The notes below the pieces were generated by a model that saw nothing but the letters and a program-made list of their open reading frames with translations, searched no databases and was not told the DNA's origin. A stretch of 34,209 bases of DNA from an uncultured Gammaproteobacteria bacterium (GTDB taxonomy: Bacteria; Patescibacteriota; Patescibacteriia; Patescibacteriales; UBA12465): NCBI GenBank assembly GCA_964414335.1, contig CAYPWC010000001.1, forward strand, positions 1-34,209, written 5' to 3'. The translations under genes and the position numbers were made by a program. Of the stretch, positions 33,901-34,209 are shown one piece after another. How positions within the stretch are numbered: position 1 is the first letter of the stretch; each line of letters opens with the position of its first letter.

Positions 33901-34209
33901 CTTGTGTTCCAAATTGTTCCGGTAAGACCTGCGGTTCTGATGGTTGCGGTGGCTCTTGTGGAGTCTGCCCATCAGGAACGCTTTGTAATCCAAGCGGCCA
34001 ATGTGTCTCCAGTTGTACTCCAAATTGTTCCGGCAAGACCTGTGGTTCTGATGGTTGCGGTGGCTCTTGTGGAGTCTGCCCATCAGGAACGCTTTGTAAT
34101 CCAAGCGGCCAATGTGTCTCCAGTTGTACTCCAAATTGTTCCGGCAAGACCTGTGGTTCTGATGGTTGCGGTGGCTCTTGTGGAGTCTGCCCATCAGGAA
34201 CGCTTTGTA
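30942..34209 (+). CDS. giant surface protein 3 (at least 1089 aa, 3' end outside the window): signal peptide, Cys-rich segment, pilin-head-like motif, Ig/cadherin-like (He_PIG-like) domains, CGDGxC modules and tandem 37-aa Cys repeats
   Basis: Absent from the ORF track because it has no stop in the window. I translated the frame by hand from the ATG at 30942 (MKKNKWFIFGGIFLLLALFFVFKNSIAQS...) to nt 34208 and found no stop. It starts 21 nt after gene 2 and in the same frame. All listed ORFs in 33018-34194 are out-of-frame or antisense shadows. Confidence 0.8.
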   Translation, partial: MKKNKWFIFGGIFLLLALFFVFKNSIAQSDGADAIGVRIVPNPNHYSVYHWYEKQGFAGSPQALLVDGYEAIRDGRTVYVNAANIKGKNIYTNIYLISYNQDPSVKTVDILGQIVKNWKFNSDLVENSDPTPTCSISSLACSSDSDCASNQVCAKTGIAANSCQLKTPKNCLTDTDCPQNFFCNSTKAKVIRDLKRVGQIEELREAINDYKNINGSYPKLSAGTYLSGHSVSVWPSWSETLLPALSLTQSFIDPINRLGACLNYDTKTCWDNTSRRFVYNPQDNYLMLPAGSYGFVYKTDQNGSNYNLCAVMETKEPTADLSFSFSPSGPASSNCVTATGIIAGGTANNTPPQIIDTYLVGEADSEFNGMIKVVDYQNNHLTWEFKTNLTNWTNWSAAPVLRGTNNDNQRRIYALKAGGPKTYEAQLTISDGQGGVLTTTTPIVIVNSKPLIEAEDGEYLLSPEKTFSYSFYFSDNNLADYRTAYRLEKTKGASSFDLLGFTAQVAPAGSNRYQVTYQGKITSSQQFTGDSEYLYKITVRDKYNNEAIKNIKITIKTESPSLIFNCLSSQRVGKEYSCFLGYLTQDKRQITFSNTSNLPEGLKVVTSTDSAFLRGIATSVFNNKVAIRATDEYGVYNTKSFSLKINSYCGDGQKQAPNTEGRGGIYNDGYEDCDGRDGLSLNAQYLPVVSTSSDKQYGCTTFNADTPYPILTNNYCVFKSPTAGGGYCGDGYCQAFIKVDGVNVPVENKENCFQDCDPNCVPNCNGRVCGSDGCSGTCAPNNCPSGEKCNANGVCIGTCGDGVCGSDESAWLCPQDCTRCGDGECTLNETAQTCPNDCENTCIFDNDCPGYQVGGGLSNPWCVGSIGECVYSNPAIFECAHIPPDLEGAICSLGVNCWRVIQRGFCQYPNDGTEIGCCVLSPGKCFNIKDSNSCNQDPACEWNLRYNSCREKVNSCHGLLSKSACQNNDCAWVTSSNLNICNPIEVACVPNCSGKTCGSDGCGGSCGVCPSGTLCNPSGQCVSSCTPNCSGKTCGSDGCGGSCGVCPSGTLCNPSGQCVSSCTPNCSGKTCGSDGCGGSCGVCPSGTLC
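33903..34209 (+). repeat. in-frame 111-bp (37-aa) tandem repeat, about 2.8 copies visible, running off the window end
   Basis: Copies start at 33903, 34014 and 34125. Copy 1 differs from copy 2 at 4 of 111 nt. Copy 2 and copy 3 are identical over all 85 nt visible. The unit is C(V/T)PNCSGKTCGSDGCGGSCGVCPSGTLCNPSGQCVSS. Confidence 0.9.

Follow-up and report, generated by a model that had tools for sequence, protein, structure and literature searches.

A probably recent in-frame tandem duplication of an eight-cysteine module at the broken end of a Patescibacteria surface-protein gene

The window analysed here is the complete contig C1 (positions 1–34209) of a 654-kb MAG assembled in 118 contigs. 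It ends within the third gene of an operon of giant surface proteins, where the gene stands after two VirB2-like-anchored giants in an order conserved in L004 and L005. The product is a secreted, adhesin-like protein of a Falkowbacteria-like genus (Patescibacteria), and the last part of its coding region, as assembled, is a tandem array of 111-nt units (Table 1). A homologue search found 531 proteins, with Falkowbacteria or Patescibacteria as the label of those that are named, and an orthologue is present in 23 of 24 same-genus genomes. Both the core of ~756 aa and the operon position behind the two giants place the protein in the orthologue family P0001–P0120.

The core, 45–68% identical to its homologues, consists of an N-terminal β domain, a Cys-rich linker, a long-helix α/β domain, three Ig-like domains and CGDG-type modules. 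In alignment A2 (72 sequences) the invariant columns reach C756, and none lies beyond it. AlphaFold2 models the N-terminal helix at residues 5–24 and gives pLDDT values above 85 over most of residues 34–646; the full-length model has low confidence in the tail. Foldseek matches the Ig-like domains to the RTX-adhesin extender repeats 6xi1 (E 2.5e-11) and also to protocadherins, and the region has weak Pfam matches to He_PIG and PKD. The CGDG-type modules (32881–33480) resemble by eye the Myxococcus cysteine-rich repeat, TIGR02232 / Pfam DUF4215; none scored above threshold. The spacer that precedes the array is without counterpart in P0001, the closest homologue, and sub-modules of it recur in other secreted proteins encoded on contigs C92 and C73 of the MAG.

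Table 1. Features of the array gene at the 3′ end of the window
Feature	Position	Strand	Basis or remark
Third gene of the conserved surface-protein operon, open at its 3′ end; product secreted and adhesin-like, at least 1089 aa	30942–34209	+	ORF, homologues, gene order
N-terminal hydrophobic helix (signal peptide or anchor; MKKNKWFIFGGIFLLLALFFVFKNSIAQ)	30942–31025	+	Translation; cleavage site judged by eye
Conserved core, residues 1–756	30942–33209	+	72-sequence alignment A2
Three tandem Ig-like / cadherin-like β-sandwich domains, residues ~350–646	31989–32879	+	AlphaFold2 pLDDT >90
First 8-Cys module, diverged single copy CVPNCNGRVCGSDGCSGTCAPNNCPSGEKCNANGVCIG	33219–33332	+	Family-conserved position, directly after core in consensus
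Non-repetitive Cys-rich spacer of variable tail	33333–33902	+	Translation
Repeat unit 1 (V variant)	33903–34013	+	Continuous with unique sequence upstream
Repeat unit 2 (T variant)	34014–34124	+	First 85 nt demanded by the assembly graph; remainder is loop sequence
Repeat unit 3 (85 nt)	34125–34209	+	Assembler's second turn of the 111-nt loop; without independent support
Perfectly periodic tract, 277 nt (55 + 2 × 111)	33933–34209	+	

Tandem Repeats Finder reports a period of 111 nt at 33908–34209 (2.7 copies, 98% matches, no indels, score 590), and direct comparison confirms the unit starts at 33903, 34014 and 34125 given in the initial annotation. Its account of the differences also holds. 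Units 1 and 2 differ at 4 of 111 nt; unit positions 4 and 5 lie in one codon and change V to T, and the differences at positions 21 and 30 are synonymous. Units 2 and 3 show no differences across 85 nt, and the array contains an exact direct repeat of 166 nt at an offset of 111 (33933–34098 = 34044–34209), which is far beyond chance. As had been described, each unit encodes 37 aa with eight Cys (CxPNCSGKTCGSDGCGGSCGVCPSGTLCNPSGQCVSS), and translation shows that both the array and the diverged upstream copy keep frame 0 of the ORF beginning at 30942. Searches of the array against Pfam, NCBIfam, PDB sequences and Rfam gave no match. Minus-strand ORFs over the array were discounted as merely the open frames that any repeat yields.

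Because the window is a complete contig, the sequence truly stops inside the array, in agreement with the initial annotation. Twelve contig pairs of the MAG (24 end-to-end overlaps) overlap by exactly 55 nt, and the MAG is therefore a k=55 de Bruijn assembly. The terminal 55-mer of the contig is found three times at a spacing of 111 nt (33933–33987, 34044–34098 and, at the contig end itself, 34155–34209); among the 236 contig ends of the MAG, only this one has a terminal 55-mer that is repeated in its own contig. Since the periodic tract measures 55 + 2 × 111 nt and the terminal 55-mer occurs three times, the contig stops at the node through which a 111-nt loop is entered, a node boundary that a random end point would hit exactly with a chance of ~1/111 by simple arithmetic. 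A k=55 de Bruijn assembler entered the loop, circled it twice and halted on that node. Together, the value of k, the length of the tract and the recurring terminal 55-mer bear out the suspicion that a short-read assembly had broken in the array because of the repeat. The array unit occurs on no other contig of the MAG.

The claim of three copies, with copies 2 and 3 identical, is true of the sequence as it stands and was overstated as a description of the organism, for the graph requires only at least two units. Unit 3 represents the second turn of the loop, so its identity to unit 2 provides no independent evidence on the organism. At least two units are real; the 2.77 copies assembled are no measurement of copy number. 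It is most improbable that the tandem arrangement is itself an artefact, with one unit per genome and a loop created by mixed strain variants. Loop traversal did produce unit 3 and part of unit 2, and chimerism is possible in metagenome assemblies. However, the T-variant head (unit positions 1–30) joins a unit tail on its 5′ side and the shared 55-mer on its 3′ side, whereas the V-variant head joins unique upstream sequence, and at k=55 these joins imply that some genome carries two or more units in succession. Moreover, tandem arrays of the module with a 37-aa period are common in fully assembled proteins. Both the reality of the duplication and a k=55 loop as the cause of the break are, in our view, very likely. 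Breaks of this sort are ordinary for repeat-rich surface proteins and routine in short-read assemblies, and nothing here should surprise a specialist. The practical consequences are that the gene model is truncated and that "three copies" should not be quoted; the 55 + 2 × 111 arithmetic offers a reusable, read-free sign of assembler loops at contig ends.

The extent of the missing sequence can be gauged from gene order. In relatives the array gene is followed by an ORF of 85–97 aa, two TSP3_bac genes, ClpP and SecDF. Contig C13 of the MAG begins 20 nt ahead of the first TSP3_bac homologue, and what is missing between C1 and C13 is the rest of the array gene and a neighbouring gene of ~90 codons. 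The two contigs can be ordered relative to each other on this basis, and a downstream contig that starts two genes further on upholds the view that the 3′ gene end and the true copy number lie outside the assembled sequence. Two other contigs were considered as the missing tail and ruled out: C73 carries a small Cys-rich gene that is complete and distinct, and the end fragment of C49 resembles the C73 and C92 proteins and adjoins hrcA-grpE-dnaK. Candidate exit contigs among short fragments (110–350 aa) reached at best 76% identity to the array, none of them from the same species. No exact match to the partial protein is on record, degenerate patterns for the unit-to-unit junction and for the variable half of the unit each gave 0 matches in JGI metagenome contigs, and the collections searched yielded no same-species sequence.

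The repeated module is by no means confined to this gene. In a restricted search, 2041 proteins match the array at E ≤ 1e-3, including GH18 chitinases, a GH9 endoglucanase, vWA proteins and agmatine-deiminase-family proteins; those with names are mostly labelled Myxococcota or Deltaproteobacteria. Among other Patescibacteria, the three-unit profile was matched in 1 of 200 sampled genomes. Proteins carry up to 23 modules, and the commonest spacing is 37 aa, among the matches listed. Counted over 240 proteins (120 family homologues and 120 other module-bearing proteins), adjacent modules are spaced at 37 aa in 351 instances, at 36 aa in 237 and at 35 aa in 192. With its period of 37 aa, the present array belongs with the head-to-tail arrays of 34–40 aa period in secreted proteins, and its unit fits the eight-Cys pattern C-x3-C-x4-CG-x-DGC-GG-x-CG-x-C-x5-C-x5-C. 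In alignment A1 (54 three-unit segments) C1, C5, C10, G11, C15, C19, G20 and C22 are invariant, and D13, G14, G17, C28 and C34 are conserved at 90% or more. No Pfam or NCBIfam family matched residues 687–1089 or two units at E ≤ 10, and no PDB sequence matched the module at the same threshold. A Foldseek search of the PDB with the three-unit model found no significant relative (best E 0.25, probability 0.21, TM ~0.2), and a literature search on the motif DGCGG returned nothing relevant. The module, which is widespread, is unnamed and has neither a Pfam or NCBIfam model nor a solved structure.

The array is probably a genuine and evolutionarily very recent in-frame tandem duplication within the fast-evolving C-terminal tail, a confidence that attaches to this explanation as a whole. 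It would stem from unequal recombination or replication slippage between adjacent module-coding units, and RecA is encoded in the MAG. Because 111 is 3 × 37, gain or loss of a unit alters only the length of the tail and never the frame. The graph can merge only if two units agree over at least 55 nt (unit positions 31–85); this forced identity, with the native codon usage of the unit, supports the earlier proposal of recent duplication or homogenization. The third-position GC content of the unit (GC3 0.351) equals the expectation from window codon usage (0.355), which led us to reject a foreign origin for the GC-rich array; the 52% GC of the unit follows from its amino-acid composition.

Two observations complicate the history. 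All four differences between units 1 and 2 fall within the first 30 nt, which by arithmetic has a chance of ~0.005 if they were placed at random, and this clustering implies a history more complex than a single clean duplication. A conversion tract, a duplication boundary within the unit, or removal by the assembler of variants past position 85 are possible causes. In addition, as regards a possible origin of the array unit from the upstream module, the unit is 74–82% identical to consensus-like modules of unrelated proteins, as against 58% amino-acid identity to its own upstream copy at 33219–33332. This closeness to a pan-bacterial consensus suggests a structural rather than a ligand-specific constraint, and it is among the points that favor a neutral, fixed duplication of two or three units that has no functional consequence and is bound to diverge as older pairs have done. 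Old pairs do predominate among adjacent modules of the family, and orthologues function with anything from 0 to 8 modules. Yet the tail is continually remodelled beside a strongly conserved operon and core, a pattern more readily understood if the architecture of the tail is important, and independent recent duplications occur in a relative. A neutral duplication is therefore a credible alternative, though one that we judge somewhat doubtful.

Comparison with relatives shows the tail to be hypervariable. The count of 0–8 modules per homologue comes from the 120 homologues listed. In 20 loci (18 same-genus orthologue regions and the P0001 and P0036 loci, two of the 20 not read as whole frames), tails range from ~200 to ~913 aa, among those read as whole frames, and contain tandem repeats with periods of 51, 102, 111, 156 and 222 nt. 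One relative carries a 111/222-nt array of its own; in L005, units 1 and 3 are 97% identical in nucleotide sequence and neighbouring units ~80%. Adjacent module pairs in the 120 family members listed (n = 55) have a median amino-acid identity of 56% and exceed 90% only in the array pair, a comparison that is biased because near-identical arrays break assemblies.

From these data, which bear on it indirectly, the length variation expected in the initial annotation is plausible in this organism, and polymorphism of copy number within this population is a tentative suggestion. That the array is a hypermutable contingency locus, in which frequent changes of unit number generate heritable variation of tail length for host attachment or for evasion of phage or grazers, seems unlikely. 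The array does show near-identical tandem units with a length divisible by three in a surface-protein gene, as such a locus would; adjacent in-frame units are exactly identical over at least 55 nt (166 nt as assembled), RecA is present, and hypervariability falls in the tail of a surface protein that is conserved in its other parts. Near-identical proteins in other organisms differ by exactly one unit: P0238 and P0361 are 99.7% identical with a single 37-aa indel, and P0128 and P0364 are 100% identical with a single 34-aa indel, while P0365 and P0363 differ by 68 aa, or two units. These unit-exact indels could reflect assembler collapse and not biology. Strain variation has been reported for large Cys-rich CPR surface proteins (PMC4736985). 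On the other hand, at least two units are all that is demonstrated, arrays in the family usually diverge rather than stay homogenized (subject to the bias just noted), and one or two recent duplications suffice for what is seen.

What the modules do may be considered by analogy. Each would be a bead stapled by disulfides, and a string of them at the protein's distal end would serve as a stiff spacer or offer a multivalent surface for binding, so that copy number would set reach or valency; whether they act in this stalk or valency role is an evenly balanced question. The three-unit AlphaFold2 model is confident in one of five models (87.7, compared with less than 50 for the others). The MAG encodes a membrane-anchored DsbA-like oxidoreductase with a CPFC site, and neither DsbB nor VKOR was found in the MAG, which is 88% complete. 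It is very unlikely that the module instead binds metal (zinc, iron–sulfur or in the manner of metallothionein), so that the array would be a metal-handling device and not a stalk. Eight Cys in 37 aa with C-x2-C, C-x3-C and C-x4-C spacings would suit such a role, as would the failure to detect DsbB or VKOR. Against it are the presence in the protein of an N-terminal helix (signal or anchor) and of Ig-like ectodomains, the occurrence of the module elsewhere on secreted glycoside hydrolases and vWA proteins, the encoded DsbA-like protein, and a module that shows no His or Asp ligand patterns; the modelled fold, of small β-hairpins, would likewise resemble EGF or LDLR-A beads.

The most far-reaching interpretation is that the array works as a fast-switching length device, placed at the distal tip of a surface apparatus of three proteins that is conserved and specific to Patescibacteria, that unit number tunes the reach or avidity with which the epibiont binds its host, and that the 8-Cys unit is a widespread, structurally new extracellular domain missed by every domain library. 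We regard this combination as decidedly unlikely. The apparatus in question would comprise two VirB2-hairpin-anchored giants and the secreted, adhesin-like array protein. The recent-duplication reading preferred here adds a further case of a conserved CPR surface protein whose distal tail is remodelled by whole-module duplication, which fits the idea that tiny episymbionts diversify their contact surfaces. It also draws attention to an abundant eight-cysteine module that Pfam and NCBIfam do not model.

Animal LDL-receptor class A and EGF-like arrays are likewise strings of modules of ~40 residues with several disulfides each. They are the top Foldseek neighbours of the three-unit model at a non-significant E of 0.25, short of what a claim of fold similarity would demand; their Cys pattern differs, and their calcium-binding acidic cluster is absent from the array module. 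At the level of DNA, in-frame, near-identical tandem repeats are familiar from surface-protein genes of Gram-positive bacteria and mycoplasmas, namely alpha C and Rib of Streptococcus agalactiae, SasG/Aap, and Vsa of Mycoplasma pulmonis. In those systems recombination or slippage changes copy number and thereby protein length and surface properties. Their units are unrelated and contain no Cys-rich modules, and the variation that is inferred here has been demonstrated there by experiment.

Within the CPR, Peribacteria encode large, clustered, signal-peptide-bearing Cys-rich extracellular proteins for which attachment was proposed and strain variation noted (Anantharaman et al. 2016, PMC4736985). 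These proteins belong to another phylum-level lineage and are likened to the array protein by description and not by sequence; that paper describes neither the 8-Cys module nor variation in unit number. TraA of Myxococcus xanthus contains Cys-rich tandem repeats, presumed to be disulfide-bonded, that are proposed to form a rigid stalk (TIGR04201; Pathak et al. 2012, PMC3325183). TraA, a recognition protein, resembles the array protein in having tandem Cys-rich repeats in a secreted cell-surface protein, whereas its repeat has three invariant and two marginally conserved Cys (PMC3325183) as against eight here. TraA also bears an N-terminal PA14 domain and a MYXO-CTERM tag, neither of which is seen in the array protein. 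A scan of NCBIfam (release 20, which may lack TIGR04201) at E ≤ 10 matched no family to the tail, and at the same threshold no NCBIfam repeat model was found on the module-rich proteins P0121, P0130, P0145 and P0036, some with 10–20 copies. TIGR02232 / DUF4215 did not match residues 687–1089 or two units at E ≤ 10.

The closest counterparts are the module arrays of secreted proteins mostly labelled Myxococcota or Deltaproteobacteria (for example P0121, P0130, P0145 and P0212), which share the 8-Cys module itself (CxPxCxGKxCGxDGCGGxCGxCxxGxxCxxxGxC) and the same preferred period of 37 aa. Near-identical neighbouring units are found in these arrays too (P0130, P0186 and P0147). In contrast to the Myxococcota-labelled arrays, the module here sits on a Patescibacteria-specific core protein.

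The array at the 3' edge of the window was detected by Tandem Repeats Finder as the only strong one, with a period of 111, 2.7 copies, 98% matches, no indels and a score of 590, and direct comparison of the units agrees with the three starts and the 111-nt period recognized in the initial annotation. The first two units differ at unit positions 4, 5, 21 and 30. On recomputation, as originally described, positions 4 and 5 fall in one codon (GTT to ACT, V to T) and the other two changes are synonymous. Translation likewise bears out 37 residues with eight cysteines per unit, and both the array and the diverged upstream copy are in frame with the open reading frame, which runs off the window. 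The 111-nt unit is absent from all other contigs of the bin (654,407 bp, 118 contigs, 87.6% complete).

Repeat features of the open gene at the end of contig C1
Feature	Positions	Strand	Remarks
Array-bearing gene	30942-	+	open at the 3' end
Diverged copy	33219-33332		in frame with the gene
Array (Tandem Repeats Finder)	33908-34209		period 111
Unit 1	33903-34013	+	V variant; units cut at the initial coordinates
Unit 2	34014-34124	+	T variant
Unit 3	34125-34209	+	85 nt, runs to contig end; no mismatch to unit 2
Perfectly periodic tract	33933-34209		277 nt, offset 111

The window is the entire contig, and the sequence does stop within the array. An end-to-end overlap search among the contigs of the bin returned 24 suffix–prefix matches of exactly 55 nt, representing 12 contig pairs, together with a reciprocal 24-nt overlap of one pair that is counted twice. 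Overlaps of this length are the signature of a de Bruijn graph assembly whose final k was 55. Contigs C3/C8, C5/C70, C10/C68 and C15/C20 are examples of such graph neighbors, and are usable for contig ordering.

The perfectly periodic tract begins at the base right after the last difference specific to unit 1, and its length equals 55 + 2 × 111. The terminal 55-mer is found three times in the contig, at 33933, 34044 and 34155; at none of the other contig ends in the bin (236 ends checked) is the terminal 55-mer repeated inside its own contig. It follows that the contig runs into a cycle of 111 nt at the node 33933-33987, circles twice and halts exactly on that node, where a random stop would fall about once in 111. 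Thus the assembly break that had been suspected at the array is demonstrated from the sequence alone, by the arithmetic of the k = 55 loop.

Such graph behavior implies that the final 26 nt of unit 2 and all of unit 3 are loop sequence. The identity of copies 2 and 3 over 85 nt, correctly reported from the sequence, is then guaranteed by construction. The same graph would be expected from a genome with two units or with twenty identical units. It does require one unit with a V-variant head joined to the unique upstream sequence and at least one unit with a T-variant head that has a unit tail before it and the shared 55-mer after it, which amounts to at least two consecutive units sharing at least 55 identical nt (unit positions 31–85). 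The assembled copy count is unreliable; all that is required is at least two units. The differences between units 1 and 2 all lie inside the first 30 nt, for which the chance, if they were placed at random, is ~0.005. Either position ~30 is close to the duplication boundary or to a conversion tract, or the assembler dropped variants further along.

Gene order in the relatives' loci L004 and L005 begins with relA/spoT (minus strand), followed by two giant proteins with T4SS_pilin heads (PF18895), the first of ~900 aa and the second of 1919 or 2169 aa, and then by the orthologue of the array gene. On its 3' side are an ORF of 85–97 aa, two TSP3_bac genes, clpP, secD, secF and a Wzy_C gene; in L005 only, a 1050-aa Fib_succ_major gene lies between the TSP3_bac genes and clpP. 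L004 has a prepilin peptidase after Wzy_C, and the L005 locus stops within Wzy_C. The order from relA/spoT to Wzy_C is conserved across the genus, and positions 20874-34209 of the window carry the first four genes as they occur in both loci. Contig C13 begins 20 nt ahead of a homologue of the first TSP3_bac gene and continues, within its positions 1-7600, with clpP, secD, secF and Wzy_C, these genes showing 51–91% amino acid identity to those of the relative. Gene content in the relative's order thus marks C13 as the downstream neighbor of the window. What falls in the gap between the two contigs, and is missing from the bin, is the remainder of the array and of the gene together with the small ORF. 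No contig of the bin is shorter than 1512 bp; perhaps the missing piece is shorter than ~1.5 kb, which would account for its absence.

The 1089 codons present have 531 homologues, the best of them 68% identical, and those that are named come from Candidatus Falkowbacteria or "Patescibacteria group" MAGs. An orthologue occurs in 23 of the 24 same-genus genomes and in most genomes of the order. In the full-length AlphaFold2 model (mean pLDDT 71; >85 over most of residues 34–646), an N-terminal hydrophobic helix, a beta domain and a Cys-rich linker precede a domain that opens with a long helix (residues 186–214); three beta-sandwich domains (residues ~350–646) are followed by a tail of low confidence. 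In Foldseek, the sandwich domains resemble the extender repeats found in an RTX adhesin of Aeromonas (6xi1, E 2.5e-11), as well as protocadherins and an S-layer protein; the protein is therefore adhesin-like, and either secreted or held at the surface. The long helix and the small beta domain after it (residues 186–330; window 31497-31931) are predicted at high confidence; matches of the full model are dominated by Ig-like domains rather than by this region.

Across an alignment of 72 sequences, invariant columns are frequent as far as C756, and there are none thereafter. Most family members carry one module, CxPxCxGKxCGxDGCGGxCGxC..G..C...G.C, after C756 (here the diverged copy), and tails beyond that first module cannot be aligned. 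Counted by regular expression in the 120 listed homologues, modules per protein range from 0 (41 proteins) to 8. Tail lengths vary from ~200 to ~913 aa among the orthologue regions read as whole frames (18 fetched same-genus regions and the loci of P0001 and P0036, 2 of the 20 not being read as whole frames), and these regions display other tandem-repeat periods of 51, 102 and 156 nt. The orthologue in L005, P0036, has a six-unit array (12321-13055) of 111-nt period, organized as a 222-nt higher-order repeat and fully assembled inside a 58.6-kb contig. Its units 1 and 3 share 97% DNA identity, compared with ~80% for neighbors, which points to a recent 222-nt duplication. Among adjacent module pairs in the family (n = 55) the median amino acid identity is 56% and only the window's pair exceeds 90%, in a comparison biased against near-identical arrays, since such arrays break assemblies. 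The closest homologue, P0001, is without any array. Thus the comparison of tails across the family identifies the array at 33903 as specific to its lineage and very recently added, in a tail repeatedly rebuilt by whole-module duplication; the recent duplication proposed earlier is real.

The GC content of the array is 52%, against 39.6% for the window, and the excess resides in the first and second codon positions (Cys, Gly, Ser, Pro, Thr). Array GC3 is 0.351, compared with 0.355 expected from the window's codon usage, and there is therefore no sign of a foreign origin.

Orthologues in the same genus are also cut by contig ends (G011:C8, G017:C10 and C113, G013:C27, G022:C7), repeatedly near query residue 650, at the start of CGDG-type modules and not in the 8-Cys array. 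Other secreted Cys-rich proteins of the MAG that have sub-modules in common with the tail are encoded at C73:358-1266, at C92:685-1353 and at the 3' end of C49. The first contains a single 8-Cys module; in the second, the tail resembles window 33470-33660 (CPGY...IPP(D/E)LEG...); the third, a C-terminal fragment of 203 aa with 32 Cys that is truncated where the contig stops, adjoins hrcA-grpE-dnaK.

When a length-restricted search was scored over the array only, 2041 proteins matched at E ≤ 1e-3, the named ones labeled mostly as Myxococcota or Deltaproteobacteria. The module occurs in up to 23 copies per protein, most commonly at a spacing of 37 aa, in company with agmatine-deiminase-family domains, GH18 chitinases, a GH9 endoglucanase, vWA domains and CAP domains. 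Of 200 further Patescibacteria genomes drawn from across the phylum, only 1 had a match to a three-unit profile, so the module is not characteristic of CPR bacteria in general. Pfam, NCBIfam models and PDB sequences gave no match to it, even in proteins with 10–20 copies; the 8-Cys, 37-aa module is a candidate new domain family. An AlphaFold2 model of three units consists of short beta-hairpins (pLDDT 87.7, only one of five models being confident), for which Foldseek found no significant neighbor, the best being LDL-receptor-A and EGF strings (E 0.25). Because the array unit matches modules of unrelated proteins at 74–82% identity but its own upstream copy at only 58%, it cannot be traced to a source. 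Two vWA proteins, P0130 and P0163, are 41% identical and have module arrays at the same place, one homogenized (five units nearly identical) and the other of diverged units.

Indirect evidence on variation in unit number comes from other proteins. Neighboring units at least 95% identical are found in 6 of 120 unrelated module-bearing proteins. Within 90%-identity clusters of such proteins from other organisms, lengths differ by exact units: one 37-aa indel separates P0238 from P0361 (99.7% identical), one 34-aa indel separates P0128 from P0364 (100% identical), P0362 and P0365 are one 34-aa unit apart, and P0365 and P0363 differ by 68 aa, or two units. Where pairs are at least 99.7% identical, the unit difference is explained equally well by assembler collapse; at 87–88% identity, units have been gained or lost in evolution. 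The bin encodes RecA, making homologous unequal exchange available. Variation in array length within the population, as the initial annotation anticipated, is at this stage plausible.

The units show that part of the distal tail of a secreted, adhesin-like protein has been duplicated in tandem and in frame. Unequal recombination or slippage between units would produce such duplications, with length alone being changed. By analogy, the modules may be beads stapled by disulfides that serve as a stiff spacer or present a multivalent surface. At 86-835 of L036, a stretch of contig C3 of the MAG, lies the gene for a DsbA-like protein of thioredoxin fold, anchored in the membrane and carrying a CPFC site (FACPFCKQ); neither DsbB nor VKOR was found in the bin (88% complete). 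The tandem Cys-rich repeats of TraA have been suggested to play the role considered here for the modules (PMC3325183). For large Cys-rich extracellular proteins of CPR Peribacteria, attachment has been proposed and strain variation noted (PMC4736985). The present case is one more of a well-known type, a surface protein rich in repeats and truncated where its contig stops, here built from an abundant but unnamed module.
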